64,000 nucleotides of DNA, taken from positions 23,362-87,361 of the forward strand of contig JBGFSC010000047.1 of NCBI GenBank assembly GCA_041694815.1. The letters are read 5' to 3'. The DNA comes from Elusimicrobiota bacterium (GTDB taxonomy: Bacteria; Elusimicrobiota; Elusimicrobia; UBA1565; JACRDR01). Shown one piece after another: positions 13,053 to 64,000 of the stretch. Below the pieces are notes generated by a model that had not been told where the DNA came from, did no database searches, and worked only from the letters and a program-made list of their open reading frames with translations. Position 1 is the first letter of the stretch. Every line of letters starts with the position of its first letter. Position numbers and translations under genes: made by a program.

Positions 13053-13334
13053 TCACCGATAAAAGCGCCTCTCGCGCCGCCGTTCGGCTTCTTCTAAAAG
13101 AAGGTCGGCGACCTCTTCGGAGAGCTCCATGACGTCTAGCTGCAACTCATAACCCAGGCCTTCGAAAAGTTTATCCCAGGTCGATAAACGACAATCGCAC
13201 CCGCGCTCGGCACGGTTGACCACCGATGGGTTGACGTCCGCTTCGTCGGCGAGCTGAAATTGCGAAATTCCCCGTTCTTCACGCATCTGCTTGAGCAGCG
13301 CTGCCATGCGGGACACGGCGCTTTCGGAACCCAT
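13053..13334 (-). CDS. XRE-family helix-turn-helix transcriptional regulator
   Basis: 93 aa; HTH_XRE signature GISQFQLADEADVNPSVVNRAERG. Confidence 0.7.
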   Translation of the reverse strand: MGSESAVSRMAALLKQMREERGISQFQLADEADVNPSVVNRAERGCDCRLSTWDKLFEGLGYELQLDVMELSEEVADLLLEEAERRRERRFYR

Positions 13335-13414
13335 GCCATATATACGATTAGCTCCAGAAAAAGTTCCGTAATTCGGGCTACTTTGACGCCGGGACGCGGA
13401 TTAGTCCCATTCTT

Positions 13415-13498
13415 GTTCTTTGCTTTTGAGCAATCGGGAACGGAATAGATGCCTTTATTCGCAGTTTTCTTGGCCCATTTTGCTCAAAAGCAAAGAAC
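13415..13498. repeat. 19-bp perfect inverted repeat (GTTCTTTGCTTTTGAGCAA / TTGCTCAAAAGCAAAGAAC) with 46-nt spacer
   Basis: arms 13415-13433 and 13480-13498 read directly; lies 80-165 bp upstream of the XRE regulator start in an AT-rich gap. Confidence 0.8.
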
Positions 13499-13583
13499 GA
13501 ATACATCAACAATCACCCACCCGTCTTTCCCAGCTACGTAAATGGTATACTTCGGGCCGCGCGAATTAAAGAATCAAAAGACA

Positions 13584-13673
13584 ATGACAGAAGCCCTGAT
13601 AAATTTAGCCGTGGGAATAATCTTGATTTTGGGTCTTGCCAAGTTTTCCGCTAAATTCCGAAAAAACAGATAA
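13584..13673 (+). CDS. small hydrophobic peptide (29 aa) MTEALINLAVGIILILGLAKFSAKFRKNR
   Basis: ATG..TAA ORF below the 60-aa cutoff of the ORF track; single predicted TM helix with basic C-terminus; TATACT -10-like box about 35 nt upstream; followed 27 nt downstream by an intrinsic terminator. Confidence 0.4.
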   Translation: MTEALINLAVGIILILGLAKFSAKFRKNR

Positions 13674-13699
13674 TTGACGGAGGGACGTTAAGCTGCCCA

Positions 13700-13730
13700 G
13701 GTCCCGGGAAACGGGGCCTCTTATTTTTGG
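13700..13730 (+). terminator. rho-independent terminator (GGUCCCG-GGAAA-CGGGGCC + UCUUAUUUUUGG)
   Basis: 7-bp GC stem (one G.U) with 5-nt loop followed by a U-run on the plus strand. On the minus strand there is no U-run, so it serves the plus-strand small ORF. Confidence 0.6.
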
Positions 13731-13733
13731 CTC

Positions 13734-15098
13734 CTATTTAAGCGGCTGAAGCTCTTTTGAGGAGCGCGCTTCGGGCTTGGAGGCACGACCCAGCAGCCGC
13801 TCGGCGCAGCGCTTGCCGTCCAAAATGGTCTCTTCCATGAAGGAATACTTCCAGGCGCCGTATCTGCCGATGGATTCTATCTCGCGCTTGTTCAAGAAAT
13901 TAAAGATGGCGCGCACCGCCGGAGTGCGGTCGAAGTCGTAGACGACGTAGGCGCAGGGGATTGGGAGCCACAGAGCGGTCAGCAGCTTGTCGGAGGACTT
14001 GAGCAGCCCGCAGGATCGCAGCCCGGCCAATATCTGGTTCTCGAGGCGCTTGAGCTCGACCTTCTCGCCGGGCCTGCGCGAGACCTCGATGTACATCGAA
14101 CTGCTGCCCCGCGGGGCCACTTTTGGGGAGAAATTGCTGCAGAACCCGGCCCGGTAGAACGGGAAACGGTTTTCCGGGAAGTAAATCCAATGCTTATCCG
14201 ACATGCCGGGCCGGGCAACGCCGATATTCCAATTGTAAACGGAAACGTAGCGCAGCCGGCCCCGTGCACGACGAACGGCTTCGGGCAAAGGCGAAGCAAG
14301 GTCCAAAAAATGTGCCAACGGCAGGGTGTTGACCAGGCGCTCGTAACGGACCTCGCCGATGCCATCGATCTCGGCGACCCGCTCGGCCAGATGCACCCGC
14401 CGGACGGCGCAGCCGACCCGGACATGGCCCAGGCCGGAGGCCAGGGCGTCGGCGAGCGACTGGCTGCCCCCGCGGATCGGGTAGCGGAAGGTGGCGTTAT
14501 AGCCGAAGTATTTCTTTTGGTCGAACAACGCGCCGTAGAGCACCTCCTCGACCGACGGTTTGGGGACGAAGCGTCCCTGCCATTCCGTCGTCAGCCGGGA
14601 TAAGGGCGCGCGCCAGAGCTTCTCGTTATAGGGGAACATGAAATGCCGCGAGATCCCTTCCCCGAAGGTCCGTAAGCTCCATTCGCGGAAGGAAAGTCCG
14701 GGCACCGCGGGCTGCGGCCGGTGCACGGTTTTGAGAAATCCGACCACGCAGTCCTCGACCGTCTTGGGAGGCAACCCGCAGGTGTTGGCCTGGAAGGGAT
14801 AGCGCGTGAACACTCCTTTGGAATAGATCCAGGAATTGCGCCGGATCACCGAAAGGTTGCCGCGCAAGAGCCCGGTGATCAATTCTTTTCCGTAGGGGTC
14901 GTGCAGGTGCAGCAGGTGCCCCGTATGGTCGAAGGTGAAGCCGTCCTGCGTGACCGACCCGGCCAGACCGCCGACGCGGGCCTTCTTCTCCGCGATCAAC
15001 CAGGAAGGCCGCCGCCCTCCTCCGAGCCGCTCAAGATGGTAGGCCGTCGAGAGGCCGGCCAGGCCGCCGCCCAGGATCAATACGTCCGTGGCGACCAT
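13734..15098 (-). CDS. FAD-dependent oxidoreductase, UDP-galactopyranose-mutase (Glf)/amine-oxidase-like
   Basis: Rossmann LILGGGLAGLSTAYHL; Glf-like GHLLHLHDP and C-terminal GRYGAWKYSFMEETI. Confidence 0.55.
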   Translation of the reverse strand: MVATDVLILGGGLAGLSTAYHLERLGGGRRPSWLIAEKKARVGGLAGSVTQDGFTFDHTGHLLHLHDPYGKELITGLLRGNLSVIRRNSWIYSKGVFTRYPFQANTCGLPPKTVEDCVVGFLKTVHRPQPAVPGLSFREWSLRTFGEGISRHFMFPYNEKLWRAPLSRLTTEWQGRFVPKPSVEEVLYGALFDQKKYFGYNATFRYPIRGGSQSLADALASGLGHVRVGCAVRRVHLAERVAEIDGIGEVRYERLVNTLPLAHFLDLASPLPEAVRRARGRLRYVSVYNWNIGVARPGMSDKHWIYFPENRFPFYRAGFCSNFSPKVAPRGSSSMYIEVSRRPGEKVELKRLENQILAGLRSCGLLKSSDKLLTALWLPIPCAYVVYDFDRTPAVRAIFNFLNKREIESIGRYGAWKYSFMEETILDGKRCAERLLGRASKPEARSSKELQPLK

Positions 15099-15099: not shown

Positions 15100-16140
15100 T
15101 CAGTGCATGCGCACGACGCCCATGCGCCGGCTCAGCAGCGCGATCTCGGCTATCAAGAAAGCGTAGATCCAAAGCGCCCACATGGAAGTGACGCGGGTGA
15201 CGATGAAGCCGCAGACCGACAGCAGGGCGGCCGCCACGGCCGCCAAGACCACGATCTGCTGGCGAGTGAAGCCCATCGCTTCCAAGCGTAGGGCGAAATG
15301 GTCCCGGGATCCCATGAAGGGCGACTGACCCTTGAGCATGCGCAGCACCATGACGAAGAACGTGTCGTACATCGGGACCATCAGTATGAAGAGCGGGGCG
15401 TACACGCCGAAGGGGTTGACCTTGGTGTAATCGGTGCCCAGCGAGATCGCGGCCAGGAGGAAGCCGAGCGGCATGCTGCCCGAATCGCCCATGAATATCT
15501 TGCGCTTTTCCGATAAGTTCCACGGGAGAAAGCCCAGGGCCGACCCGGCCACCGCCGCTGAGGCGAAATTGACGTAGATATGCTCGGAGGGCATGGCGAT
15601 GAGCAAAAATCCCAAGGCGGCGATCGCCGCCTGGCTGGAGCAAAGCCCGTCCATGATATCGATGATATTGAAGGCGTTGGTGATGCCGACTACCCAGAGT
15701 ACCGTCAAGGCGATCGCCAGGTAATCCGGTGTGATGAAGTGTATCCGGATCCCGTAGGACACGAGAACGATCGCGGCGAGCAATTGCCCCGCGAACTTGG
15801 TGCCCACGTGGAGACCCTCGGGCTTTTTCCAGTCGTCGATGAGGCCGAGCAGGAAGACGATCGCCGAGCCGATGACGAGCGCGCGCAGGCTGTAGAGGGT
15901 GCCCGTGGGAAAGGCGGTATAACGCCGCAACAGAAGAAGGCTCAAGGCGAAGCCGAGCCAGATGGCGACGCCGCCCATCATGGGTGTGGCGATCTTGTGC
16001 GTCTTGACGGAGCTCGAGGGGGCGTCCAGCCAGCCGAAGCGCAGGGCCGCCTGGCGCATCACGGGCGTGGCCAGCATCGACAAAAGCCCCGAGGCGGCGA
16101 TGGTCCCGATGTAGAGTTGAATCGTTCCCGTTTCTTTCAA
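15100..16140 (-). CDS. polyprenyl-phosphate N-acetylhexosamine-1-phosphate transferase (WecA/MraY family, GT4-type initiating enzyme)
   Basis: NAFNIIDIMDGL and MGDSGSMPLGF motifs; about 10 TM segments. Confidence 0.8.
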   Translation of the reverse strand: MKETGTIQLYIGTIAASGLLSMLATPVMRQAALRFGWLDAPSSSVKTHKIATPMMGGVAIWLGFALSLLLLRRYTAFPTGTLYSLRALVIGSAIVFLLGLIDDWKKPEGLHVGTKFAGQLLAAIVLVSYGIRIHFITPDYLAIALTVLWVVGITNAFNIIDIMDGLCSSQAAIAALGFLLIAMPSEHIYVNFASAAVAGSALGFLPWNLSEKRKIFMGDSGSMPLGFLLAAISLGTDYTKVNPFGVYAPLFILMVPMYDTFFVMVLRMLKGQSPFMGSRDHFALRLEAMGFTRQQIVVLAAVAAALLSVCGFIVTRVTSMWALWIYAFLIAEIALLSRRMGVVRMH

Positions 16141-18137
16141 TCCTTGATCGCCATTAGGGCGCAGGAATCGGACGCGTAAACGGGCTCCAGGAGCCCGGCG
16201 CGCTCAAGGCCCTCCCAATTCCTGATCCCCGCCGGGGAAAACGAGAAGATGCCGTAGCCAGAGAGGCGCCTCCCCTCCCGCGGGACGAGCAGCAGGTGGG
16301 TGAATTTTCCCTCGCTTTTGAGCAGCCCCGCGAGCTCCACGGGGCTCGATGAGCGGTCGGCCCATTCCACGAAGCGGTTGGGGGCCATGACGGTGGTGGC
16401 GACGTGATCCTGCTGGACGTAGTAACCCCGCTGCTCGCCCACGATGAGGATTCTATCATTTTTGCCCAAACGCTCCCTCGCCCGCAGCGCGCAAGGATAA
16501 TAGTCCAGGCGTCGCGAGAGGTACTCGTTGCGGCTCTCGGCGCCGGAGAGCAGCCGCCAGCTCGAGAGCACGGTGTGCACGTAGAAGAAAAAGCCCAGGT
16601 TGCAGAGGATAAACAAGGCGAGGGCCGCCGCCAGGAGGGTCTTGCCTCCGCGCTCAAAGGAGCGCCAGAGCCGGTGGAAGCCAGCCGCCGCCGGCAGGCT
16701 CAGCAGCGGCACCAGCACGGTCAAGAAGCGCAGCACCACGCCGGTCGAGAACCACACGGCGGCGTGGAAGGCGCAGTAGCCGAGCATGCGGCGCAGGCTG
16801 CGGTTGGCGAAGGCGGCCCATGCCGCCAGCGGCGTCAGCGCGAGGAGCAGCCCCCAGCCGAGATTGCCCAGCACATCGGCTCCACCGCCGAAACGCAGGT
16901 TTCCGGTGAAGGCCAGGAAGGGGAACGCGAGCAGGTCCGAGAAAAACTGGCCATGCCCGTGCCCGTAATCGGTCAGGGCCGAGAAATACCGCTTCGCGTT
17001 CTCGGGACCCCAACCGGTCCCACGATAAGGGAAATGCTGGTAGAGAAACGGAAAGAAGGGGTTGCCGAGGCTCAGCCAATTGCGGATGAGCCAGGGGCTG
17101 CCAACCACGGCGGCGCAAAGGCCGAAGCGCAGCGCCGGGCGCCAGGCGCGGCGGATCACAAGATATAGCCCAATGGCCGCTGGGCATATGCCGACGTAAT
17201 ACTTCGTCCCCACCCCGAGCCCGGCGAAAAGCGCCGAAAGCAGCAGCCAACCGTCGCGCGAACCCTCGATCTCCCTCCAGCGGCAAAAGCATAGGACGGA
17301 GGCCGTAACCCAGAGCATCGCCAGGGTCTCGACGTAGGTGATCGAAGACAGCAGCATTACCGCCGTGTGGGAGGCGGCGAGCACGCAGGCGAGCAAGGCG
17401 GCGTTGATCGGCATCTCGCGTTTGCCCATCTCGAACATCCACCATAAGGAAAGGGCGGTCGCCAGCCAGCTGAACATCTGCGCCAGGAGGTCGGAGCCGA
17501 GCATCAGGGCGAACATGAAGAGCATCTCGCCGTTCTGCGGGAAATGCCCGAAGAGCACCGGGGGTTGCGCCGTAAGCCCCCCATGGCGCAGGTAATAGGC
17601 CGGGAGCTCGAGATGGTAGACCAGCGAGTCGTACTGGTGCGGCGGCACCCAAGCCGTCCAAAAGGTCAGGCAGAGCAGGGCTGCCAAGAACGCCGTCCAC
17701 CCCGAGCGCCCTCGCAGCAGGCTGCGGTTGGCGGCCAAGGACAGCACGACGTCGCGCATCTCGGTGAAGCTCAATACCCAGAGTACGGAGAATAGGAGCA
17801 CGACGGCCACGGGCTTGAGCGCCCCGGTGGCGGCCAGCAGCAGCATGCCCTGGCTCAGTATGCCCAGGCCCAACGTGCAGCCGATGAGGGTCCTCTCGGA
17901 CTCGCTCATATGCGTCGCGACGTACATCTTCAGCGCCAGGCGCCCCATGCCGGTGCAGGTGAGCACGGTCAGCGCGAGCAGGACGGCGGCCGTCAGCCCC
18001 GCGGCGAGAGGCTGGGCGAAATGGCTCCAGCAGAGGTAGAGGGCCAGCCCCAGCAGCCCCAGCAGGTACGCCCACGCGGCCAGCGAGGGGCTGCCCCCCT
18101 CGCGTTCGACGCGCGCGCCTTCGCGGTGCTCAGCCAC
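16137..18137 (-). CDS. polytopic membrane protein, putative GT-C family glycosyltransferase (ArnT/PMT-like)
   Basis: 666 aa, >12 predicted TM helices, periplasmic-loop acidic/aromatic motif (YDSLVYHLE); ATGA-type overlap with neighbours. Confidence 0.4.
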
Positions 18138-18891
18138 CGTTCTTGGGGATGAACAGGGGGCTACGGATGAGCCCCATGCGATGGAGCCGGTACTGCAGCA
18201 TCACGCCCAGCGAGGAGAGCCCGTAGACCATGCTGCGCCGGAAATTGATCGAGGAGGCCTCGGGAAAATAGCGCGCGGCGACGGGGATGTCCCCGATGCG
18301 GAACTGCAGCGCCGCCGCCTGGTAGAGGAACTGCTGGTCGAAGACGAAATCGTCGGAATTTAGCTCCCAAGGGATGGTCTCGAGGACCTCGCGGGAATAG
18401 GCGCGCAAGCCGGAATGCCATTCTCCAAGGTTCTGCCCGGTCCAGGAATTCTCGAGCATCGTGAGCCCGCGGTTGGCCAGGTATTTCCACCACGGCATCC
18501 CGCCCATGAGCGCCTCGCGACGCGTGCGGATGCGGTTGCCCAGCACTACGTCGCAGACGTCGTTGGCGATGAGCCCCGTCATATGCGGTGTCAGGCGCGC
18601 GTCATATTGGTAGTCCGGATGGATCATCACGACAATGTCGGCGCCCCGGCGCAAGGCCTCCCGGTAGCAGGTCTTCTGGTTGCCGCCGTAGCCCTTGTTG
18701 CTCTCGTGCCGGATGGCCGTCAGCCCCAGGCGGCGCGCCAGCTCGAAAGTGCCATCCTTGGAGCAGTCGTCGACGAGGATGATCTCGGACACCGAGTCCT
18801 TGGGGATGTCGCGGACGGTCTTTTCGAGCGTCTGCTCCGCGTTGTAGGCGGGCATCACGACGATGGTGTTCACGAGTGCTGCGACCGACAT
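18130..18891 (-). CDS. GT2 glycosyltransferase (DPM1/ArnC-like polyprenyl-phosphate sugar synthase)
   Basis: [26 protein letters not shown] motifs. Start placed at MSVAALV (ATG 18891) rather than the ORF-track 18948. Confidence 0.7.
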
Positions 18892-19142
18892 ATAATGCCC
18901 GCTTTGGACGGGCGATTTTGAGGCGAGGCAAGGAGCGAGGAGCGCCACGTACCTGGAAGGTACGCAAGCGACGAGCGACGCAGCCGCAGCCCAAAAGCGA
19001 CCGAATACCGGCCTGAGCCCATCTTTGGCCGGCCGCGTCGTTGCGCCTCGCTCACAGGCCTACAGGCCTGCTCGCTCGGCGCGCCTAGCGGCCGTCTCAA
19101 AGCTAGGCTCCCAAAGCGAGCATTATATGTCGGTCGCAGCAC
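18876..19142. repeat. 32-bp inverted repeats (1 mismatch) flanking a 203-bp segment; invertible-promoter-like element or MITE
   Basis: left arm 18876-18907 (GTGCTGCGACCGACATATAATGCCCGCTTTGG) and right arm 19111-19142 are reverse complements except one C/T. Each arm carries a TATAAT box and an ATGTCGGTCGCAGC start segment. Confidence 0.75.
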
Positions 19143-19185: not shown

Positions 19186-20088
19186 ATGCCCCGAGACCTC
19201 GAATTCGTGCCCCCTGATAATTTGCTCGAGCATTTCCGCTCCTTCGGCAGGGGATTGGCCGTCACCCGCGGGGTCTACGAGCTGCGCAACCGGCACCAGG
19301 CCCAGGACCTGGCCTGGAACCACATGGACCAGATGCATCGCCCGCTGGTGCACAACACCTATCTGGAGGCCTCGCGCATCGCCCGCGGCAGGAATTTCGC
19401 CCTGTCATTGACGAAAATGACCCCCTTTTCTTTGCTCGTGCCGGTAATGGACGTGCAATTGGGCCCCGACTTATTCTACCAGTCCTTCACGCTGTTTAGC
19501 CTCGTGCACGTGCTCTGCCTCAACCGGATGGTTCCCGAGCCGGATGGGCGCTGCCTGCAGCGCACCGAGTGGTACATCACCTCGCATTGGCTGTTTAAGT
19601 TCCTGCACCCCCTCGTCCATCGCCGCTTCAGGAGGCTCGTCGAGTTCCAGAACGCCCAGGACATCCCGATCCGCGACCGGCGCCAGCAGCTGCGCGAGCG
19701 CGGCTATCGCTTCGGCAGCGACGACCCGGATTATCTGAGCTCCAACAGCCTGGAGCTGGCCGTGCGGCCGCCGCGGCTGGAGGGGACGCACCGCATCGAC
19801 GTGAGCGCGGTCGGCGCGGCGCTGGAGCAGAAAATGGCGGGGCCGATCGAGCTCCTGATCCGGCGCTCGGGCGGGACCGTCGAGGTCTGGCCCGGGGTCT
19901 GCCCGCATGAGGGAGGGCCGCTGCTCTGCGGCAAGCTGGAGGCCGGCCGGATCGAATGCCCTTGGCATGGATTGAATTTTTCCGGGGTTTCGCTTACCCC
20001 CTCCAAGCCCGACGGCCGGCTCGGCGAGCTGGCACTGACGCTCGAAGGCGAGTCGCTGCGCGTGCAGGCGGCATCATCAGCCGGGTGA
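19186..20088 (+). CDS. Rieske [2Fe-2S] domain protein with uncharacterised ~230-aa N-terminal domain
   Basis: C-terminal CPHEGGPLLCGKLEAGRIECPWHG (CxH-x16-CxxH); in-frame TAG at 19165 fixes the start at 19186; N-terminal domain contains an H-x4-H (NHMDQMH) patch. Confidence 0.6.
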   Translation: MPRDLEFVPPDNLLEHFRSFGRGLAVTRGVYELRNRHQAQDLAWNHMDQMHRPLVHNTYLEASRIARGRNFALSLTKMTPFSLLVPVMDVQLGPDLFYQSFTLFSLVHVLCLNRMVPEPDGRCLQRTEWYITSHWLFKFLHPLVHRRFRRLVEFQNAQDIPIRDRRQQLRERGYRFGSDDPDYLSSNSLELAVRPPRLEGTHRIDVSAVGAALEQKMAGPIELLIRRSGGTVEVWPGVCPHEGGPLLCGKLEAGRIECPWHGLNFSGVSLTPSKPDGRLGELALTLEGESLRVQAASSAG

Positions 20089-20121
20089 CGCCGGCCAAAG
20101 GCATTTGCTAACATTTTAGTA

Positions 20122-24546: not shown

Positions 24547-24556
24547 TGAAAACGTC

Positions 24557-43619: not shown

Positions 43620-43620
43620 A

Positions 43621-49601: not shown

Positions 49602-49689
49602 GCCGCTAATACGTAACAGGAACTTCAAAAAAATGCAATACATTCTTAGGTGCCTGGGCGAAAGTCAATCCCTGGCACCTAGGCCACGC

Positions 49690-56588: not shown

Positions 56589-56591
56589 GAC

Positions 56592-58022
56592 TTACTCTAC
56601 CAAATAAAGCGTTCTGCCCTCGGCGACGGCCCTCGGAGCCATGCGCAGCGGCAGAGAGAAGGGGCGCCAATCGGGAGGTAGGCGTTCGGGCACCACGGCC
56701 ACCGGCTCGCCCGAGCGACGCAGGGCATCGATACGCTTGGCCAGCGAGGCCCGGTCGTGGTAGCGCAGGCTGAGCGTCTTGCGGTGGGCGAAATAGGGGA
56801 CGTAGACGCGGTCGACCCCTTCGGCTAGAATCCAAGTATCCTCACTAGTCTCGCGCCCGACCCAAAGACTGTATTGCAGATCGGCGTTGAGCGCAGGATC
56901 CGCGCCCGGACGTATCACACGGGCCCAGTTCCATAAGCCCAAGGCCGCCGCGGCTAGGCACGCGAGTAGCGGGGCCCGGTCGAAGGGGAGGCCGGAGAGG
57001 CCCAACGCGATCAAAAGCCACAACGGCGCCAGGTCGCTGTAGCGGTAGACAACGGTTCCCGACTCCCAGGAAAGATAGAGCAAGGCGTAGCCTGCCAGCC
57101 AGGCCACGGCGAGTCGGACGGGCTTAGATCCCAGCCCCCCCTTGATCGCTCCCCATGCCGCCAGGCACCAACCGAGCGCGCCCGCCCAGACGCCGGCGCC
57201 GAAAAGCTGCAGCGAGCGCGTTAGCCAAGTGAGTAGGTTGGGCATCGAATAGCCGCCATGCCAGTCGAATTGGCGGTCGACCGTGAGCGCCGCGCTGCCC
57301 AAAAGCCATACCCGAAGCTCCTCCCACGAGCCTGGCCGCATGATGAACGCGCCCGCCGCGAGATACGCCGCGCCTACGGTGGAACCGAGGGCCAGGAGGT
57401 ATCGCCGCCGGGCGCAGGTATCCTTAAGCAGCCAAATCGCCGCCGGAGCGAGCATCAAATGCCCCACATGCCCCAGGACGGCGCCAGCCTGGAGCAGCCC
57501 GATTATGATGGGCCTCTGGCTTGGCCGCAACAGCTCTACCGCGGCGCAGAACGCGAAAAAGGCGCCCAGGGGATAGACCTGCGCCTCCAGCGACCAGCGC
57601 CAGTAGACATCCGACACCGCCAGACACGCGGCGACGCACGCTGAGAATCGCCGGTCAAAGCCAGAGCGGCGCATCATGAGGAAAAAAGCTCCCACCCCCG
57701 CCGCTCCCAGAAGGGAGCTCAATGCCTGCAGCGAGAGGAGCGCCGGCCCCGAGTACCCCAAGATCTTCCAGAATTCGAAGAAGAGCCAGCCTAAGAATCC
57801 GTAGGCGAGATGGTTGCCGTGCACGAGATGCTTGAGATCCCCCAACTCCACGGCGATGGCGCAGGCCACCCCGTCGTAATTGTAACGGGCGGCCGGGAAA
57901 CTCAAGTACAGTCCCGCCACTAGCACGAAGAGGAGCGCGGCCCAACGGACGGGCCGGTCTAGCGGAGACACCGTCGAATTTCGCGACCTGGATGAATCGC
58001 GACCCCGTCGATCATGTAGCAA
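56592..58022 (-). CDS. polytopic membrane protein, putative GT-C/GT87-like glycosyltransferase
   Basis: about 12 TM helices; first ~25 residues of the ORF are low-complexity, so the true start is probably internal. Confidence 0.35.
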   Translation of the reverse strand: MLHDRRGRDSSRSRNSTVSPLDRPVRWAALLFVLVAGLYLSFPAARYNYDGVACAIAVELGDLKHLVHGNHLAYGFLGWLFFEFWKILGYSGPALLSLQALSSLLGAAGVGAFFLMMRRSGFDRRFSACVAACLAVSDVYWRWSLEAQVYPLGAFFAFCAAVELLRPSQRPIIIGLLQAGAVLGHVGHLMLAPAAIWLLKDTCARRRYLLALGSTVGAAYLAAGAFIMRPGSWEELRVWLLGSAALTVDRQFDWHGGYSMPNLLTWLTRSLQLFGAGVWAGALGWCLAAWGAIKGGLGSKPVRLAVAWLAGYALLYLSWESGTVVYRYSDLAPLWLLIALGLSGLPFDRAPLLACLAAAALGLWNWARVIRPGADPALNADLQYSLWVGRETSEDTWILAEGVDRVYVPYFAHRKTLSLRYHDRASLAKRIDALRRSGEPVAVVPERLPPDWRPFSLPLRMAPRAVAEGRTLYLVE

Positions 58023-58119
58023 GCGCGCGGCGATACCAGGCGATGGTCGCGCGCAGGACGCGGTCGGTCATCTCGGAGAGGCGGGTGCCCATGCCCCCCG
58101 CCAGGATGGCGACTTTCAT
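58012..58119 (-). pseudogene. 35-codon remnant of a sugar-1-phosphate nucleotidyltransferase (RfbF/RmlA-like) N-terminus
   Basis: MKVAILAGGMGTRLSEMT matches the G-x-G-T-R-L nucleotidyltransferase N-terminus, then diverges and stops; ATG overlaps the upstream gene stop (ATGA), i.e. positioned like a former full-length gene. Confidence 0.45.
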
Positions 58120-59339
58120 CGAAGGGAGATTTTAGCAATTCTCACCGCGGCGCGCTCCGCGGCGAGGGCGGCGAAAAGGATGATCCAGGTCATGACGGGA
58201 ATGCGGTAGCGCAACATGGTAAATATCAAAGAAAAAGTGAAGGCGACCGAAGCCACGAAGAGAAGCGGGACGATGCTCTCTTTTTTGCGGCGCAAGCCCA
58301 AAACCGCACCCAGCAGCCCCAATGGGATGATCCAGCCGTCCGACAGCATGCCTACCAGGCGCACCTGCCCGTATGAATGGCCGGAGCCGTACGACCGCGG
58401 CCTGGGCCAAAGCCGCCAGAAGTCCACGAAAAACCGCCACGCCCAGATGCGCAGGTAGCCGAGCGGGTGCTCGCCCACCCAGTTGAGCCCCGCCTTCCAG
58501 AAGTACTTCTCCCGTTCGATGGGATCGAGTCCCCCGCTGTTCTGGAACACGGAATCGTTTTTGATGATCTCTTGGTGCTCGGCAAGCCCTCCCAATTCCT
58601 GAGGGACAACGAGGTATTCGTAAAAGTTTCCGCCCGCACCGCAGGTGTTGCCAAAAACGAAGCGTTGGAAATGGATGTAATTGCGAATGGGCCAGAGCGC
58701 GTACAGCGGAATCAACGCCGACAAGAACAGCCCAGCCCTCCGCCATTGCCATCCGCACTTGAAGTCCCACGCCAAGAGCAGGAGCGGCGCGAGGATCAAG
58801 CCGAAGGGCAAGAGCGTCGTATCCGTCAGCGCGCCCAAGGCATTGATGATCCCGGAGAGCCAAACCCAACGGGGCCGCTCGAGCGATTCCAATAAACTCC
58901 AAACTCCCGCCACACCGAAGAACACAAGCAGGGATTGGCGCATCGCCTGGGCGTTGTAAAAAATGAAGGGAGGGTACAGTGCCGCTATCGCCATCGCCAG
59001 GGTAGCGGCGCGCTCGCCGAACAGCCGGCGGCCGCAGAGGAACAAAAGCCCGATGCCCAAGGCCTGCGCCAGCGTGTTGACGACGAGCACCGCCGCGTAA
59101 TTCTTTCCAAGCAGTTTGAAGCCCAAGCCCAGGTATACCGGATATCCGGGTTCGCGCCAGGCCGTCACCTTGCCGTCGGACCCCTTTAAGGTCCAGGAAT
59201 CGGCGAAGGCGGAGGCGATGGTCGCGTAATCGTCCGGGTGGGCCAAAGGGGCGCCATGCGGCTGCGGCGGGCGCGCCCATCCGTAAAAGAGGCGTGCGGC
59301 GACGGCCAGGCCGAGCAGGGCCCAATGCAGCCGGCTCAC
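58116..59339 (-). CDS. GT-C family glycosyltransferase (ArnT-like)
   Basis: GYPVYLGLGF...YPPFIFYNAQAMRQS ArnT-like periplasmic loop; GTG start 59339 (GTGA overlap with the aminotransferase stop) preferred over ORF-track 59573, which would overlap by 238 nt. Confidence 0.55.
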   Translation of the reverse strand: MSRLHWALLGLAVAARLFYGWARPPQPHGAPLAHPDDYATIASAFADSWTLKGSDGKVTAWREPGYPVYLGLGFKLLGKNYAAVLVVNTLAQALGIGLLFLCGRRLFGERAATLAMAIAALYPPFIFYNAQAMRQSLLVFFGVAGVWSLLESLERPRWVWLSGIINALGALTDTTLLPFGLILAPLLLLAWDFKCGWQWRRAGLFLSALIPLYALWPIRNYIHFQRFVFGNTCGAGGNFYEYLVVPQELGGLAEHQEIIKNDSVFQNSGGLDPIEREKYFWKAGLNWVGEHPLGYLRIWAWRFFVDFWRLWPRPRSYGSGHSYGQVRLVGMLSDGWIIPLGLLGAVLGLRRKKESIVPLLFVASVAFTFSLIFTMLRYRIPVMTWIILFAALAAERAAVRIAKISLR

Positions 59340-60439
59340 GCCTTGAATTTCCTCAAAGAGGATAGGATTTTCTCTACGTCGGCGTCGGAGAGGCCCGGGT
59401 GCAGGGGAATGCTCAGGGCTTCTTCGTTCAAACGCTCGCAGACCGGCAATTTTGCTTTGGAGCCGTAAATGGGATTTAAGTGCAGCGGATGATAGCGCAG
59501 CGTGGTATAGATGCCCTCTTGATAGAGGAATTTGGCCAGCATGTCCCGACGACCGCCCGGCACCCGGATGCAATAGGTGAAATAGGAATGCCTGTCTCCG
59601 GCCGGGACATCCTTAGGGAGCTTGAGCCAGGAAAGCCCCGCGAGCTCTTTTTGATACAGCTCCCATATCCAGCGACGCCGGGATTGCATCGCGTCGAGCT
59701 TGCGCAATTGGGCCAGGCCTATGGACGCGGCGATGTCGTTGGGCAGCATCTTGGGGAAGAAATCGGTAACGCTGTATTCCCACCAGCGGTCTTTGTTGGC
59801 GGAGGCTTCGAATCCCGATTTGCCGATCCCGCAATAGCGCAACTGCCTCGCCCGAACGAGCCGGGCCGGGTCCTTGGCCGTCAGCCCGCCTCCCTCTCCC
59901 ATAGCCAGGTTCTTGATCGCGTCGAAGCTGTAAATGCCGATGTCGCCCAAGGAGCCGCAAGCCTTGCCCGCCCTGCGGGAGTCCACGGCGTGCGCGGAGT
60001 CCTCGATGATGGGCAACCCCAAATCCGCGATGGGCTCGAACTCGACCGGAAGCCCGCCGTAATGGACCACCATCACCGCCCTGGTCTTGGGGGTCCGCGC
60101 CTTCTCGATGCATTCGCGTGTCACATTCTGGGTTTCGTAATCGACGTCGCAGAACACGGGCGCGCAGCCGCAGAGCACCACCGCGTGCGCGCAGGAGATC
60201 CAGGTGAAGGAAGGAACGATCACCTCGGAGCCCTGAGGCAGGTCCAGGAGCTTCACGGCCAGGTGCAGGCTGTTGGAGCCGGAATCCAGCAGCACGAAGC
60301 CCGGCAGGCCCAGCCGGGCCGCGAACTGCCTCTCGAAAGAGGCTGTCTTGGGACCAATGCCCATCCACTGCGCCTCGAGGCTGCTGCGCACCTCCTCGAG
60401 CTCCTCCTTTCCGACCAAGGATCCGAATACGTTGATCAC
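59336..60439 (-). CDS. DegT/ArnB-family PLP-dependent sugar aminotransferase
   Basis: SFDAIKNLAMGEGG with the conserved PLP lysine; GTG start 60439 (GTGA overlap). Confidence 0.7.
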   Translation of the reverse strand: MINVFGSLVGKEELEEVRSSLEAQWMGIGPKTASFERQFAARLGLPGFVLLDSGSNSLHLAVKLLDLPQGSEVIVPSFTWISCAHAVVLCGCAPVFCDVDYETQNVTRECIEKARTPKTRAVMVVHYGGLPVEFEPIADLGLPIIEDSAHAVDSRRAGKACGSLGDIGIYSFDAIKNLAMGEGGGLTAKDPARLVRARQLRYCGIGKSGFEASANKDRWWEYSVTDFFPKMLPNDIAASIGLAQLRKLDAMQSRRRWIWELYQKELAGLSWLKLPKDVPAGDRHSYFTYCIRVPGGRRDMLAKFLYQEGIYTTLRYHPLHLNPIYGSKAKLPVCERLNEEALSIPLHPGLSDADVEKILSSLRKFKA

Positions 60440-60948
60440 GCCCCCCCCTTCGCATAGGCGCACGGGGAGAATACGTACCAGTCAAGACGCATCTGGTAGT
60501 AGTCCCCCTTGTCCTCGGCGATGCTGAAACCGCATTTCTGATACCAGCCGACGGCGGGATTGCCACAAAGCACCTTGCAGCCGATCTCCCGGGTATGCTC
60601 GGCGGCGATGAAGCTGCACATCAGGGTCATGGCGCGGCGCAGCACGCCGCGCCCAGTCGCCTGGGGCGTGCCAATGATATTGTAGCAGTCGGCCGCACCG
60701 CCCAAGAGCCTAAAGCCCATGCATCCCGCCTTGAGGTTTTCCCACTCGACGACGAACATGTGATCGTCCGGGCGCGCCAGAAAGCCCTCGTACCAGCGCC
60801 GCTGCATCTCGGGCGTAATCTCGTCCTTGAAGAAAAAGGCCCGGCGGTTGGCGTTCTTCCAGACTCGAAGATCTTCCAAGTCGGACTCGTCGATGGAGCG
60901 CAGCGATACGTCCAAGGAGGGTCCCTCGAGGACCAGGCGGGCTTTCAC
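60436..60948 (-). CDS. GNAT-family N-acetyltransferase
   Basis: GNAT-like core (FVVEWENLKAGCMGF...GRGVLRRAM); GTG start 60948 overlapping the upstream stop. Confidence 0.45.
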   Translation of the reverse strand: MKARLVLEGPSLDVSLRSIDESDLEDLRVWKNANRRAFFFKDEITPEMQRRWYEGFLARPDDHMFVVEWENLKAGCMGFRLLGGAADCYNIIGTPQATGRGVLRRAMTLMCSFIAAEHTREIGCKVLCGNPAVGWYQKCGFSIAEDKGDYYQMRLDWYVFSPCAYAKGGA

Positions 60949-62648
60949 GAGCCCGGGCCTCCGCGCTCGTAAATCGTGAACGCCATATTCGCGAAGACGG
61001 AATTGTCCCTTGCCTTGGCCCAGCCCGGCTCCCAAGGCCTGAACTCGGCCGCCTTACGGTAGCCCGCCTTCGAGGGGTCCCCCAAGGCCTCGCGTCCACT
61101 TTCGCCAAGAACAAGGAAACGAGGAGACTGTCCGGGCTTGAGGGACTCCAGCCGGTCCGTGATCACCCAATGGTAGCGGTCGAAACGCAGCGGCGGCGTA
61201 TGCGCCGGCTCGGGGTAGCGGGAAAGCCCGACCCTGCTGCCGGCGGGCACATGCGCCTCGATCCAAGCGGCCGCCCGAGCCCGAGTCGATGACGGCCCGG
61301 AGTCCAGCCGCATATTTTCCAGGGCGGCGACGCCGCGCAGGCCGGTATCGGCTAAGAGCAGCGCCGCGGCCAGCGCGCGCCAGCGCGGCTTAAGGCGCCA
61401 GAGCAGATCGACGCCTAAGAGCACGGCCACGGCGACGAGGGGATAGTAGAGCCGCAAGAACCCGGGAGCGGTGAAAAAACCGAACCGCACGAAGATCGGT
61501 ACGGCGCAGCCCAGCACCGTCGCCGCAAGCAGGCGGCGGCCGCCCACGCCGGAGGCGAGCGAGCCAAGCACCCCGGCGGCGGCCACTATCGCCAAAAACG
61601 GACCCATGCCGATCCAGAACGCCGGCAGGAATGCCAAGAGATGCTCGGGTCTGCCGCGCATGTCGACTCCTCGGGTCTCCCAGATGAAATCCTCGAAGGC
61701 GAAAACCAGGTACGGGTTAAATAGCAAGGCGACGGCCGCGGCGGCCAAGCATCCCGCGGCAGCCGGCCGCCATTCGCCGGGCTCGGCCTCGCCCGACGCC
61801 TTGCGGCCGGCCAATAGGAGCAACGGAAGTGCGAGCAAAAACACCAGCGAAAAGTTCGCGCCGACAGCCATCCCAGCGCAGGCTCCGCAGAGCCAATAGC
61901 CGCGGCGCCGCCGGAAGGATACGAGGAACCAGCAGGCCGACAGCGTCCAGAACGCGGCGAATGGATGCGGCTTGACCACATGCGAATTGTCGACGATGTT
62001 CGGGCACAGCGCGAAGAGCAGCGCGGCCAGGACTCCCGCGGCCGGCGAGGCCAGGCGCCGGCCCATGGAGTAGATCACCCAGAGACAACCGATCTGAAAC
62101 AGGAGAACGAAGAGGCGTCCGCAGAGGTAGAGCAGGCCCATTTCCTCGGGCCGAAGCAGATAATATTCCACCTCCGGCACCAGTCGGCAGGCGCCGAGCC
62201 AGGAGACTGCCTTCAAGAAAGCGCCCAGCGGGTAGATGAAGGCGCCGCCGTACTGCACGTACAGCGGCTTGAATTCCAGTTTCCAAGGGCGCATATGCGC
62301 CAGGATAATGAACGATTTCTTCTCGTCCGGGTGCTCCGACTGCAGGAGCATCGCCCGGCAGGAGTTGAGCAGGTTTCCGGGAGGGAAGCGCCATCCCGCG
62401 CGGAATTCTTCGACGCCGCGGCTGTAGGTGATCGGCTCCTCGGCGCGTAATTCGCGGTGGGCCTGCGCGATGCCTTCATAGAGCCGCCTCCAGCTCTCCG
62501 AAAATTCGCGCATCGCCTCCGGAGAGCGGCGGAGATGCTCGGGTAGGACATGCCAGCGCGCGGGTCCCGGCAGACCCCAACGCAGGCCCCAGAGCCCGAT
62601 GCAAAGGCCCGACAGCAGGACGCAGGAAGCGGCTAGTTTATCGCGCAT
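60945..62648 (-). CDS. GT-C family membrane glycosyltransferase (ArnT/PMT-like)
   Basis: 567 aa, >12 TM helices, periplasmic-loop EHPDEKKSF / FIYPLGAFLK region. Confidence 0.45.
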   Translation of the reverse strand: MRDKLAASCVLLSGLCIGLWGLRWGLPGPARWHVLPEHLRRSPEAMREFSESWRRLYEGIAQAHRELRAEEPITYSRGVEEFRAGWRFPPGNLLNSCRAMLLQSEHPDEKKSFIILAHMRPWKLEFKPLYVQYGGAFIYPLGAFLKAVSWLGACRLVPEVEYYLLRPEEMGLLYLCGRLFVLLFQIGCLWVIYSMGRRLASPAAGVLAALLFALCPNIVDNSHVVKPHPFAAFWTLSACWFLVSFRRRRGYWLCGACAGMAVGANFSLVFLLALPLLLLAGRKASGEAEPGEWRPAAAGCLAAAAVALLFNPYLVFAFEDFIWETRGVDMRGRPEHLLAFLPAFWIGMGPFLAIVAAAGVLGSLASGVGGRRLLAATVLGCAVPIFVRFGFFTAPGFLRLYYPLVAVAVLLGVDLLWRLKPRWRALAAALLLADTGLRGVAALENMRLDSGPSSTRARAAAWIEAHVPAGSRVGLSRYPEPAHTPPLRFDRYHWVITDRLESLKPGQSPRFLVLGESGREALGDPSKAGYRKAAEFRPWEPGWAKARDNSVFANMAFTIYERGGPGS

Positions 62649-64000
62649 CCGCCAGCTTCCGAGCGAGCCTCTCGGCTGCCTCGTAGCCCATCTTCATGGC
62701 GACATGGGTGTTGACGTACTGGAAGCGCCCCTGCCGGCCCGCCGTTTCCAGGTTCGCGATCCGGCCAAAAGCCTCCAACAACCTCCCTAAAGCCTCTTCA
62801 TAACCCAACGTGTATATCGGGTGGGCGTGACGCGCCCGGAAAACGTTCATCGCCACGACTTCATCGCGCGCGACGATTCCCTCGCGGAGCAGGTCGCCCA
62901 GCACGGCCTCCTTGACGAAGGCCTCGTCAGTCCATAGCCGCTCGCCCGGGTCGCAGGTCACCTCGGCGACGAGCAGCGTGCTGCCCGCCGGCTCTATCTT
63001 GAAGCGGAACTGGGCTAGGTCTGTGATGCGGTTGAAGGAATGCTCCCGGAAATACATGAAGGAGGCGGGCAGGACCCTCGGACGCCGGACCTTGATCCCA
63101 ACGAAGACGATGGCGCGAAAGCGCAGGGCGCCGGCGGCGCGCTCGGCCTCCACGCCGAGACCCGGCTCGAACATGCGCGCGGCCTCGTTGATGGGCAATG
63201 TGTTGACTATGGCCGAGCAGGGGATCCTTTTTTCGATACCCTCCACGCGCGCGGAGACCGAAATGGCGCGCCCGCCTTCCCGCGCGATCTCGAACACCTC
63301 GGCGCGGTAGAGGATCTCGCCGCCCCGCAACGCGAGCCGCTCGGCCATGCGGCGGGTGATCAGCGAGAAGCCCTGACGGGTCGTATAGAGCTCGCCTTCG
63401 ACCTTCTCGACGTATCCTTCGGTGCGCAGCTCCCTTTTGCCGAAAAAGGAGCTGCGCAGCACCTCCTTGAGCTTGTCCAAAAAATCCAGCAGGCTCAGAC
63501 GGGGGATGCGCTCGCGCGCGAAGGCCGGCGAGAATCCGGACGGAGGGATGCCCCAAACCCGCTCAATATAATCCTTGAAAAAAATCTTGTAGAGGACATC
63601 GCCGTAGTAGCGCACGAGCACCGTCTCGGAGTTTTCCACCGGGGGCTTGTAAAAGAAACCGTGGAGGAAACAGTACGCGAAGCTTGCCGCCGCCCGACAC
63701 ACGGTCGTGAAGGGCAGCTTGAAGAGCACGTCCGCCACCGAGAGCGGGAACTTAAAGTAATTGCCGAGGAAGCGGATCTGGATCGTGCGCTTGTAGGGAA
63801 GCAATTCGGAACCCATGAGCTCCTTGACATCGGCCAGTATCTGCGGGTCGGTGGTATGGAACACATGCGGGCCGTATTCGTAGACGTCGCCGCCCAACGT
63901 CACGCCCCCGGCCAGGCCGCCAGGATGATCCTCCTTTTCCAGCACCAGCACGGAGTGGCCGAGCTTCTGTAGTCGAAAGGCCGCGGACAGCCCGGCGCAG
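62638..64000 (-). CDS. UDP-galactopyranose mutase (Glf)-like FAD-dependent nucleotide-sugar pyranose/furanose mutase (5' end beyond window)
   Basis: YGPHVFHTTDP and C-terminal GRQGRFQYVNTHVAMKMGYEAAERL match Glf blocks; upstream in-frame sequence GAGLSAAFRLQKLGHSVLVLEK (Rossmann) continues past position 64000. Confidence 0.6.
   Translation of the reverse strand, partial: CAGLSAAFRLQKLGHSVLVLEKEDHPGGLAGGVTLGGDVYEYGPHVFHTTDPQILADVKELMGSELLPYKRTIQIRFLGNYFKFPLSVADVLFKLPFTTVCRAAASFAYCFLHGFFYKPPVENSETVLVRYYGDVLYKIFFKDYIERVWGIPPSGFSPAFARERIPRLSLLDFLDKLKEVLRSSFFGKRELRTEGYVEKVEGELYTTRQGFSLITRRMAERLALRGGEILYRAEVFEIAREGGRAISVSARVEGIEKRIPCSAIVNTLPINEAARMFEPGLGVEAERAAGALRFRAIVFVGIKVRRPRVLPASFMYFREHSFNRITDLAQFRFKIEPAGSTLLVAEVTCDPGERLWTDEAFVKEAVLGDLLREGIVARDEVVAMNVFRARHAHPIYTLGYEEALGRLLEAFGRIANLETAGRQGRFQYVNTHVAMKMGYEAAERLARKLADAR

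Follow-up and report, generated by a model that had tools for sequence, protein, structure and literature searches.

A modular island of GT-C membrane glycosyltransferases and Dpm1-like enzymes in an Elusimicrobiota genome

Introduction

Why would a bacterium keep eight large membrane glycosyltransferases within one stretch of its chromosome, and do they build one glycan or several? The question is raised by a 64-kb stretch of a metagenome-assembled genome (MAG) of the phylum Elusimicrobiota (assembly GCA_041694815.1, contig JBGFSC010000047.1), hereafter the window, in which positions 13053-64000 (51 kb) form what we call the island. An initial annotation, made from the sequence itself, had described there about eight membrane glycosyltransferases of the GT-C type, four glycosyltransferase family 2 (GT2) enzymes of the Dpm1/ArnC type and one WecA-like initiating transferase, and had proposed that the GT-Cs jointly assemble a single surface glycan. 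Pairs of a lipid-phosphate-sugar synthase and a GT-C are known for glucose, galactose, GlcNAc, mannose, aminoarabinose, GalN and pentofuranoses, usually as a single accessory module. To our knowledge, the envelope chemistry of Elusimicrobiota is essentially unstudied. Our combined findings suggest, with a probability of about 60%, that several periplasmic glycosylation systems dependent on lipid-phosphate sugars are combined in the island as modules. They would follow the three-component logic of GT2 and GT-C that GtrB/GtrC, ArnC/ArnT and Ppm1 or PpgS with mycobacterial GT-Cs exemplify, a paradigm in which the synthase of a lipid-phosphate sugar and a GT-C act together with a flippase (PMC11127046).

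Results and Discussion

The island and its setting

Reading frames were chosen by third-position GC, the GC content of the window being 61-71%, and all chosen frames were scanned against Pfam and NCBIfam. From position 13053 to the window end we found 44 genes, the longest gap between them being 399 nt. They are arranged in three long co-directional blocks, the first running from 18948 to 13053 on the minus strand, the second from 19186 to 34886 on the plus strand, and the third on the minus strand in two runs (64000 to 42621 and 41454 to 34851) with the plus-strand gene GTC5 between them. Positions 1-13048 hold genes for dnaE, a HEAT-repeat protein, a DeoC-family aldolase, PFK, a HAMP protein and an OEP protein, followed by further housekeeping functions (a patatin-like protein, a TPR protein, dapF and dapA). 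Since there is no GT-C among the 12 genes upstream of 13053, and since subsets of the island genes are syntenic in at least six other Elusimicrobiota contigs, the clustering is not due to chance.

Eight GT-C enzymes

All eight of the large membrane proteins are GT-C enzymes (GTC1 to GTC8, Table 1). Pfam PMT_2 (PF13231) is matched by GTC1, GTC2, GTC3, GTC4, GTC7 and GTC8 at 31.6-45 bits, above the cutoff of 26.1. GTC5 had no Pfam match in the window scan; a 100%-identical database entry (P0241) carries PF13231, and the protein aligns with GTC7 across 384 aa (E 9e-16) and with GTC3 at E 5e-5. Its homologs, 45-53% identical, are named GT39 or ArnT family. For GTC6 no match was found in Pfam, NCBIfam or the PDB, and because sequence searches of GTC5 and GTC6 against solved structures gave nothing useful, we turned to fold prediction for GTC6. 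Its AlphaFold model (pLDDT 90.0, pTM 0.90) most resembles ArnT (5f15; E 1e-6, TM score 0.59), with ALG12, PglB, STT3, DPY19, Pmt4, PimE and AftB among the other matches and the first non-GT-C fold at a probability of 0.21. Structure models cover two of the eight proteins, the other being GTC1 (pLDDT 89.8), for which ArnT 5f15 is again the top structural match (E 1e-7) and STT3, AftA and ALG9/12 are also found. Nearly all of the top 40 (GTC6) and top 35 (GTC1) structural matches in the PDB are GT-C enzymes (ArnT, STT3, PglB, ALG9/12, DPY19, Pmt4, AftA, PimE). The profile search (PF13231/PF02366) and the structure prediction that the initial annotation had recommended thus bear out its count of about eight GT-Cs, six by PMT_2, GTC5 by its identical copy and paralogy, and GTC6 by its model; no Wzy, ligase or transporter fold was found in their place.

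The eight are old paralogs, their best pairwise BLASTP matches having E values of 1e-9 to 1e-16. Acidic residues are conserved directly after the first transmembrane (TM) helix in the four families with 8 to 101 homologs. D170 of GTC1, which is preceded by extra N-terminal helices, shows no variation among 42 sequences and is conserved to at least 95% in a set of 81. In GTC4 the acidic pair D47-E48 lies in the motif GLP..(F/Y)N.DEP, invariant in 8/8 orthologs. At least 95% conservation was also found for D48-E49 of GTC5 (42 sequences) and D50 of GTC6 (101 sequences), and the Asp-Glu of GTC8 is retained in its single available homolog, which is 31% identical. Judging from the basic N-termini alone, the acidic loop would face the periplasm.

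GTC6 represents a family with more than 250 homologs, and all those that carry names come from Elusimicrobia/Elusimicrobiota MAGs. A profile of 40 family members reaches TMEM260 weakly (E 0.037), and one homolog carries PF11028. The named homologs of GTC1 and GTC5 are likewise all from Elusimicrobia/Elusimicrobiota, and the single GTDB match of GTC4 is an Elusimicrobia MAG protein (38% identical).

The C-terminal alpha/beta domain of GTC1 (residues ~560-666) corresponds to Pfam DUF8201 in homologs and weakly resembles the C-terminal globular domain of the archaeal oligosaccharyltransferase AglB-S2 (3vu0; target-normalised TM score 0.53, E 0.1). No WWDYG-type motif was seen in this domain.

Four GT2s coupled to GT-Cs

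The four GT2s (GT2a to GT2d) all match PF00535, at 64-97 bits, and their closest characterised relatives are lipid-phosphate transferases, so that they are predicted to be of the Dpm1/ArnC/GtrB type, in agreement with the initial annotation. Their solved relatives are dolichyl-phosphate mannose synthase (DPMS; 5mlz), ArnC (9bhc, 8vxh and 9hwj) and GtrB (5ekp), with DPMS or ArnC as the top match of each. For GT2a and GT2c, DPMS of P. furiosus (PfDPMS) and ArnC are the sole PDB matches; GT2b is closest to ArnC 9bhc (E 5e-15, residues 5-265, with the C-terminal TM helices included) and GT2d to DPMS 5mlz (E 5.6e-14, residues 1-220, the whole catalytic domain). The top NCBIfam models are PpgS, dolichyl-phosphate hexose transferase, AglJ and ArnC, with scores of 27-127 bits vs equivalog cutoffs of 325-529, which makes the four proteins orthologs of no named enzyme. 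Read by eye, the metal motif is DGDLEY in GT2d and DGDGSY in GT2b, while HPDYQY of GT2a and SPDGNS of GT2c retain the second Asp alone.

The alignment of GT2d with DPMS was interpreted with the published DPMS structure (PMC5526996). In PfDPMS, D89 and D91 form the metal motif, and R117, R131, R202, K208 and E12 hold the dolichyl-phosphate (Dol-P) phosphate and the acceptor loop (PMC5526996). GT2d keeps E12, D89, D91, R117, R131, R202, E206 and K208, with a 9-residue insertion after R131. At S135, which is counted with the arginines and K208 among the acceptor-binding positions, GT2d has Asn.

Functional coupling between the GT2s and the GT-Cs is indicated by translationally coupled gene pairs, by conserved operons and by a gene fusion in a relative. 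The stop codon of GT2b and the start codon of GTC2 overlap as TGATG, GT2a overlaps GTC1 by 8 nt, and GmhA overlaps GT2d by 4 nt. In another Elusimicrobiota assembly (GCA_016194745.1, JACQBA010000011.1, positions 1906-4365; locus L007), a Dpm1-like GT2 (residues 2-231) and a GT-C are joined in one uninterrupted open reading frame (ORF) of 819 aa, the GT-C half being 31% identical to GTC8 (E 4e-56). By its sequence, this appears to be a Rosetta-stone fusion of a donor synthase and a donor user.

A core operon conserved in the phylum

In assembly GCA_043827405.1 (contig JBDRPD010000034.1; loci L010/L011, L010 6392-18072) we found a co-directional, tightly packed operon of 11 genes in the order HddC-GmhB-HddA-GmhA-GT2d-GTC5-GTC4-GT2a-GTC1-WecA-like-UGM-like, where UGM stands for UDP-galactopyranose mutase. 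Identities to the window proteins are 66% for GT2d (242 aa), 50% for GTC5, 48% for GTC4, 77% for GT2a, 53% for GTC1, 59% for the WecA-like protein and 64% for the UGM-like protein. The operon is flanked by dapA, dapF, TPR, patatin, OEP and HAMP genes, the same flank that occupies positions 7570-13048 of the window. L007 has GT2a-GTC1-WecA-UGM and the flank as in the window; the complete genome CP096137.1 (L008) has GT2d-GTC5-GTC4 and, apart from these, GT2a-GTC1-WecA-UGM; L009 carries heptose genes, a short-chain dehydrogenase/reductase (SDR), a GT2, GTC5/GTC4 and UGM-WecA-GTC1-GT2a; and parts of the core are found in L012, L013 and L032. Orthologs of GT2a are 69-77% identical and always lie upstream of GTC1, those of GTC4 are 38-48% identical, and those of the core heptose genes 50-75%.

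The window retains this order, with the heptose genes and GT2d at 53279 to 49690, GTC5 and GTC4 at 42703-39754, and GT2a, GTC1, WecA-like and UGM1 at 18948 to 13734. GTC5, a plus-strand gene here, converges with GT2d, an arrangement that many relatives share. The core is split by a 7-kb block (42621-49643) and a 21-kb block (19186-39727), and is extended by an 11-kb block (53288-64000). Thus, the comparison of loci points to a modular island made of a conserved core and lineage-variable insertions. Of the GT-Cs, just three are members of the core, as are two of the GT2s; the remaining five GT-Cs lie in segments absent from L010/L011.

The WecA-like enzyme that the initial annotation had noted is present, with a score of 114 bits against TIGR02380 that does not reach the equivalog cutoff of 326 and with orthologs that are 58-64% identical. 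The neighbouring UGM1 gene encodes a protein of the 'amine oxidase' kind that matches the UGM of A. fumigatus (3uka/3ute, E 7e-50, residues 2-335) and that of T. cruzi (4dsg, E 2e-46, residues 4-441), and its orthologs in L007, L009 and L010 are 56-70% identical. A second, divergent member of the family, UGM2, adjoins GTC8; all 24 of its 24 PDB matches are UDP-galactopyranose mutases, the best being weak (2e-10) and covering the N-terminal 150 residues. The likeness of UGM1 to these mutases and the UGM2 copy make a furanose donor possible for the line formed by GT2a and GTC1.

A link between heptose genes, GT2d and GT-Cs

We scanned metagenome contigs for GT2d and obtained 80 loci. For orthologs (at least 58% identity), 19 loci include 1 kb or more of sequence before the GT2d gene, and 17 of these carry HddA or GmhA directly upstream in the same direction; of the 13 loci that extend far enough downstream, 8 have a GT-C no more than 600 nt away. 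In a second tier from soil metagenomes (45-52% identity), heptose genes are found upstream in 13 of 38 loci. The soil contig that represents this tier (Ga0207675_100000001, positions 106-7711; L055) has the order PMT_2 GT-C-HddC-HddA-GmhA-GmhB-transaldolase-SDR-methyltransferase::GT2, the last domain being GT2d-like, and about a dozen loci are similar; the link between heptose genes, Dpm1-like GT2s and GT-Cs is thus not confined to Elusimicrobiota. An ORF at 7629-8903 of the same contig was considered as a membrane partner and rejected as a spurious frame, arginine-rich and devoid of a TM helix.

Because orthologs of GT2d follow heptose genes and GT2d keeps the phosphate-binding residues of DPMS, we propose it as a candidate polyprenyl-phosphate heptose synthase. 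DPMS uses GDP-mannose, which is GDP-linked and manno-configured, like the predicted GDP-heptose donor of GT2d. In the literature that we searched, no lipid-phosphate heptose donor was described, and searches on GT-Cs of Elusimicrobia, lipid-linked heptose and lipid-linked galactofuranose returned nothing directly relevant. If the donor is real, it would be a new sugar class for extracytoplasmic glycosylation. More tentatively, and as something short of probable, we suggest that a heptose-specific extracytoplasmic glycosylation pathway may exist both in Elusimicrobiota and in one or more further uncultured lineages from soil, which together with the eukaryote-type UGM, GT2a and GTC1 would make up a phylum-wide, ER-like route to a core surface glycan from a phosphoglycosyl transferase (PGT), lipid-phosphate sugars and several GT-Cs.

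A model of the island and its alternatives

Upon the folds, families, conserved residues, operon structure, synteny and fusion observed above we place a model whose donor sugars, lipid carrier, topology of action and acceptor we infer. On the cytoplasmic face, the four Dpm1-like GT2s would move sugars from nucleotide sugars to polyprenyl (undecaprenyl) phosphate. The lipid-phosphate sugars would then be flipped by a flippase encoded outside the island, and on the periplasmic face the eight GT-Cs would pass the sugars to acceptors by means of the conserved Asp or Asp-Glu. In the core, two lines may operate: GT2d would make polyprenyl-phosphate-heptose, from which GTC5 and GTC4 transfer heptose, and the UGM-like mutase and GT2a would make a second lipid-phosphate sugar, possibly a furanose, for transfer by GTC1. 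The WecA-like enzyme would provide a primer, polyprenyl-diphosphate-N-acetylhexosamine. Three modules would be added to this core, namely a 15-gene operon for a modified heptose (6-deoxy, 3,6-dideoxy or branched) with GT2b, GTC2 and GT2c; a module of a carbamoyltransferase, a radical SAM enzyme, GTC3 and a methyltransferase; and an amino-sugar module with GTC6, GTC7, GTC8 and UGM2. The acceptor could be lipopolysaccharide, protein or another polymer.

Several observations weigh against this model. No flippase of the GtrA, SMR, MATE or Wzx type was detected by Pfam in the island genes or in the L010/L011 operon; as there is no such gene and no gap longer than 399 nt, the locus lacks one defining component of a three-component system. 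The Pfam scans likewise found no Wzx, Wzy or ABC gene in the window, and no ligase, exporter or acceptor is encoded there. GTC6 homologs sit in a different cassette elsewhere, so the eight GT-Cs need not serve one product. Since all the NCBIfam scores are far below the equivalog cutoffs, the donor sugars are guesses. GT2a, GT2c and GT2d have no TM helix, and GT2d differs from PfDPMS at D39 (Gly; the base-reading Asp of DPMS and GtrB), H94 (Tyr) and S135 (Asn). Finally, the typing of the GT2s, as opposed to ordinary glycan-elongating enzymes, comes from PDB and NCBIfam matches.

Such elongating enzymes are the subject of one alternative, in which the GT2s are ordinary cytoplasmic transferases that act on a lipid-diphosphate-linked oligosaccharide and the GT-Cs use diphosphate-linked donors as polymerases, ligases or oligosaccharyltransferases (OTases). 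PF00535 is a very broad family, and the lack of a TM helix in three of the four GT2s, the sub-cutoff NCBIfam scores and the OTases STT3 and PglB among the structural matches would agree with it. We nonetheless find it very unlikely, as GT2a and GT2c match no solved structures other than DPMS and ArnC, one of which also tops the matches of GT2b and GT2d, GT2d retains the arginines that bind the Dol-P phosphate in DPMS, a GT2 is fused to a GT-C in a relative, and the window holds no Pfam match to STT3, Wzy_C or an O-antigen ligase. A single assembly line was the picture drawn by the initial annotation: all eight GT-Cs would act in turn on one WecA-primed lipid-linked glycan, as in the synthesis of mycobacterial arabinogalactan and lipoarabinomannan or in the lumenal ALG steps, and yield one surface polymer. 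All the genes do lie within three long co-directional blocks, the core operon joins a PGT with two GT2s and three GT-Cs, and with one priming PGT and one cytoplasmic GT-B most elongation would be periplasmic. But with three of eight GT-Cs in the core and the other five in segments that L010/L011 lack, with GTC6 homologs at unrelated sites in other genomes, and with the window devoid of a polymer exporter, a ligase and a Wzx that could handle a diphosphate-linked intermediate, stepwise building of one glycan by all GT-Cs is not supported and appears to us unlikely, though with some chance left to it.

Two further alternatives concern the acceptor. PMT- or TMEM260-like GT-Cs might modify secreted or surface proteins, such as the S1 peptidases of the island, its cargo protein of the type IX secretion system (T9SS) or an S-layer protein. 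GTC1 matches PMT (32.6 bits), the GTC6 family profile reaches TMEM260 weakly and one of its members carries PF11028, eight genes for secreted proteins lie within the island, and GDP-D,D-heptose serves S-layer glycans in other bacteria. The protease/T9SS block is, however, absent from syntenic loci, membership in PMT_2 does not predict the acceptor, and there are no TPR or MIR acceptor-binding domains, all of which makes protein O-glycosylation rather unlikely. In an Arn-like charge modification, some or all of the GT-Cs would be of the ArnT type and would place amino sugars on lipid A or the core as a defence vs cationic peptides. This is improbable in our judgement. ArnT does top the structural matches of both models, ArnC is closest to GT2b, an ArnB/WecE-like aminotransferase and a GNAT protein adjoin GTC7 and GTC8, and homologs are often automatically named 'ArnT family'. 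Yet the rank of ArnT reflects the shared GT-C fold, with STT3, ALG12 and PglB scoring nearly equal; the window has no ArnA-type formyltransferase/decarboxylase, ArnD or ArnE/F; the aminotransferase scores 214 bits with the ArnB model vs a cutoff of 631; and the conserved core is linked with heptose and a UGM-like mutase rather than with 4-amino-4-deoxy-arabinose. The predicted polyprenyl-phosphate-heptose donor of the favoured model, if real, would also give a function to families labelled 'hypothetical' or generic 'GT39', namely those of GTC6 (with its >250 homologs), GTC5 and GTC1, and the compact 11-gene operon of GCA_043827405.1 is small enough for heterologous expression, which makes the idea directly testable.

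Comparison with known systems

The initial annotation had likened the island to actinobacterial cell-envelope synthesis. Similar to the mycobacterial set (WecA, Glf, Ppm1/PpgS; PimE, EmbA-C, AftA-D, Rv3779), the island joins a WecA-type primer enzyme, a UGM, Dpm1/PpgS-like synthases and several GT-C paralogs; PpgS is the best NCBIfam match of GT2a, and AftA, AftB, AftD, PimE and Emb are among the structural matches. In contrast to that set, it lacks DprE1/E2, genes for arabinose synthesis from phosphoribosyl pyrophosphate and a GlfT-type galactan polymerase, its UGM is of the eukaryotic type, its host phylum is presumably diderm and the sugars differ. The resemblance is a fair mechanistic analogy and no proof of family membership. 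With ArnC/ArnT the island shares the pairing of GT2 and GT-C, ArnT as best structural match, ArnC as best match of GT2b and an ArnB-like aminotransferase, whereas it has no ArnA, ArnD or ArnE/F and its scores are far below the equivalog cutoffs. In relation to DPMS (P. furiosus 5mlz; eukaryotic Dpm1), GT2d aligns over the whole catalytic domain, keeps D89, D91, R117, R131, R202, K208 and E12 and would likewise use a GDP-linked, manno-configured donor, but it has no TM domain, differs at D39, H94 and S135, carries the insertion after R131 and is co-operonic with heptose genes, not mannose genes.

In Gtr three-component systems (GtrA/GtrB/GtrC-type; pentofuranose variant, PMC11127046), as in the island, a GT2 that charges polyprenyl phosphate is encoded beside a GT-C, and GT2b shares with GtrB and ArnC a pair of C-terminal TM helices. 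The island differs in having no flippase gene, in its eight GT-Cs and four synthases vs one each, in being chromosomal and phylum-conserved vs the phage-borne seroconversion modules, and in its predicted donors, heptose and possibly a furanose. Compared with the systems above, what distinguishes the locus is a phylum-conserved core operon with several GT-Cs that is tied to GDP-heptose synthesis and a eukaryote-type pyranose-furanose mutase. The GDP-heptose pathways of the C. jejuni capsule (PMC10440746, PMC10680097) have counterparts in the island for GmhA, HddA, GmhB, HddC, the 4,6-dehydratase, the pyridoxal phosphate (PLP)-dependent C3-dehydratase and the Fcl-like epimerases/reductases. The C. 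jejuni GDP-heptoses serve cytoplasmic transferases, whereas the island pathway is tied to Dpm1-like GT2s and GT-Cs and also has a thiamine diphosphate (ThDP)-dependent E1 alpha/beta pair.

Insertions and other features

The features of the island are listed in Table 1. Every gene that the initial annotation had named was recovered in its place, the XRE regulator included. Its statement that nearly every gene from there onward is glycan-related was too strong, as about 10 of the 44 genes have no evident glycan role (the XRE regulator, a Rieske protein, four S1 peptidases, a PorV-like protein, the T9SS cargo and two TldD/PmbA-like proteins).

Table 1 Features of the island in window coordinates (HTH, helix-turn-helix; CTD, C-terminal domain).
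Feature	Position	Strand	Evidence and remarks
XRE-type HTH regulator	13053..13334	-	HTH_3 30.4 bits; window-specific, absent from syntenic loci (L007, L010)
UGM1, eukaryote-type UDP-galactopyranose-mutase homolog, core gene	13734..15098	-	PDB 3uka/3ute, 4dsg
WecA-like polyprenyl-phosphate HexNAc-1-P transferase, core gene	15100..16140	-	PF00953 112.6 bits; ~8 TM segments
GTC1, 666-aa GT-C with C-terminal alpha/beta domain, core gene	16137..18137	-	PMT_2 38.4 bits; PMT 32.6 bits
GT2a, Dpm1/PpgS-like GT2, core gene	18130..18948 (likely ATG 18891)	-	PF00535 70.5 bits; NCBIfam best PpgS 1.7e-18
Rieske-domain protein, first gene of insertion 1	19186..20088	+	PF00355 37.4 bits
GT2b, ArnC/GtrB-like GT2, two C-terminal TM helices (231-249, 261-279)	20122..21012	+	PF00535 94.5 bits
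GTC2, GT-C translationally coupled to GT2b	21012..22784	+	PMT_2 32.3 bits
Fcl-like SDR	22766-23788	+	Pfam/NCBIfam scans
Short SDR	23785-24546	+	Pfam/NCBIfam scans
GT2c, Dpm1/AglJ-like GT2, 221 aa	24557..25222	+	PF00535 64.4 bits; DPMS 1.2e-10
Fcl-like SDR, second	25219-26187	+	Pfam/NCBIfam scans
ThDP E1 alpha	26154-27161	+	E1_dh 207 bits; pyruvate dehydrogenase (PDH) E1 model 295 bits
ThDP E1 beta	~27164-28189	+	Transket_pyr, Transketolase_C; PDH E1 model 304 bits
RfbH/PseC-like PLP enzyme	28048-29355	+	Pfam/NCBIfam scans
Gmd-like 4,6-dehydratase	29352-30335	+	Pfam/NCBIfam scans
SDR	30332-31273	+	Pfam/NCBIfam scans
HddA-like kinase, second copy	31283-32293	+	Pfam/NCBIfam scans
HddC-like nucleotidyltransferase, second copy	32290-32976	+	Pfam/NCBIfam scans
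GT-B (GT4-family) glycosyltransferase::methyltransferase fusion	32973..34886 (start approximate)	+	Pfam/NCBIfam scans
Methyltransferase	34851..35684	-	Methyltransf_11 37.7 bits
GTC3, 407-aa GT-C	35666..36889	-	PMT_2 40.2 bits; paralog of GTC5, E 5e-5
NodU-type carbamoyltransferase	36879-38921 (true start probably near 38640)	-	Pfam/NCBIfam scans
Radical SAM/SPASM protein	38642-39727	-	Pfam/NCBIfam scans
GTC4, GT-C, core gene	39754..41454	-	PMT_2 38.2 bits
GTC5 (= X5), GT-C, core gene	41396..42703	+	GTC7 paralog; identical database copy P0241 has PF13231
Four tandem secreted trypsin-like S1 peptidases, insertion 2	42621..46618	-	Trypsin_2 53-64 bits; signal peptides
PorV/PorQ-like outer-membrane protein	46747-47880	-	NF033709 74.9 bits, below cutoff 90
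T9SS-type cargo, 622 aa, CarboxypepD_reg and Por_Secre_tail CTD	47775-49643	-	PF18962 32.6 bits
GT2d, DPMS-like GT2, 242 aa, core gene	49690..50418	-	PF00535 97.4 bits
GmhA, HddA, GmhB domain, HddC/ManC-like domain, contiguous, core	50415..53279	-	113, 153, 164, 144 bits; all below equivalog cutoffs
Two TldD/PmbA-like proteins with signal peptides	53288..56588	-	PF19289 89 and 93 bits
GTC6 (= X6), GT-C of unannotated Elusimicrobiota family	56592..58022	-	Predicted structure; D50 conserved
GTC7, GT-C	58116..59573	-	PMT_2 45 bits; start uncertain, ORF overlaps next gene by 237 nt
ArnB/WecE-like sugar aminotransferase	59336-60463	-	DegT 286.8 bits; ArnB model 214 bits, cutoff 631
GNAT acetyltransferase	60436-61035	-	Pfam scan
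GTC8, GT-C	60945..62648	-	PMT_2 31.6 bits; PDE/ADE motif conserved
UGM2, second divergent UGM-family flavoenzyme	62638..64000	-	5' end cut by window end, frame open to there

The enzyme set of C. jejuni for 6-deoxy- and 3,6-dideoxy-heptoses matches that of insertion 1 (PMC10440746). The GT-B::methyltransferase of insertion 1 is the sole cytoplasmic Leloir glycosyltransferase of the island besides the GT2s. The E1 alpha/beta pair sits within the sugar-nucleotide operon, with no E2 or E3 nearby. Attachment of a two-carbon branch to keto-sugars takes place in the aldgarose and eurekanate pathways, and by analogy the pair may add such a branch to a keto-sugar here.

Homologs of GTC6 in other Elusimicrobiota (L001/L004 7600-11400; L002, L003, L005 and L006) belong to a conserved four-gene cassette of a carbamoyltransferase, an SxtJ-like membrane protein, DUF5989 and the GT-C, which suggests that the substrate of this GT-C family may be carbamoylated. 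We looked for SxtJ and DUF5989 beside GTC6 and found neither in the window; the window's carbamoyltransferase, 31% identical to that of the cassette, lies 18 kb from GTC6. Homologs of the TldD/PmbA-like proteins repeatedly adjoin or sandwich a GTC7-like GT-C in other Elusimicrobiota loci (L012 4516-9048, L018 9974-14500, L013 19256-21217, L009 1595-3118).

T9SS-type sorting parts occur here outside the FCB group. From the cargo's C-terminal domain the initial annotation had suspected a host from that group, possibly Gemmatimonadota. All named homologs and the syntenic contigs, which are Elusimicrobiota assemblies, place the organism in Elusimicrobiota, and the cue therefore fails as a taxonomic marker even with a PorV-like protein present. 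A literature search on T9SS in Elusimicrobia found nothing.

Horizontal acquisition of the island was considered and rejected. The window contains no tRNA and no Rfam family, hence no such element at the module boundaries, and the GC content of core, insertions and flank is alike (63-68%), with no compositional sign of foreign origin.

The XRE gene is separated from UGM1 by an AT-rich gap of 399 bp (13335-13733), and both the gene and the gap are absent from syntenic loci. Within the gap, a perfect 19-nt inverted repeat (GTTCTTTGCTTTTGAGCAA at 13415-13433 and TTGCTCAAAAGCAAAGAAC at 13480-13498, 46 nt apart) may be an operator. The gap also contains a 43-aa ORF on the plus strand (13542-13673) with a single hydrophobic helix; beyond it, near 13690-13727, lie a hairpin and a T-run that resemble a terminator.

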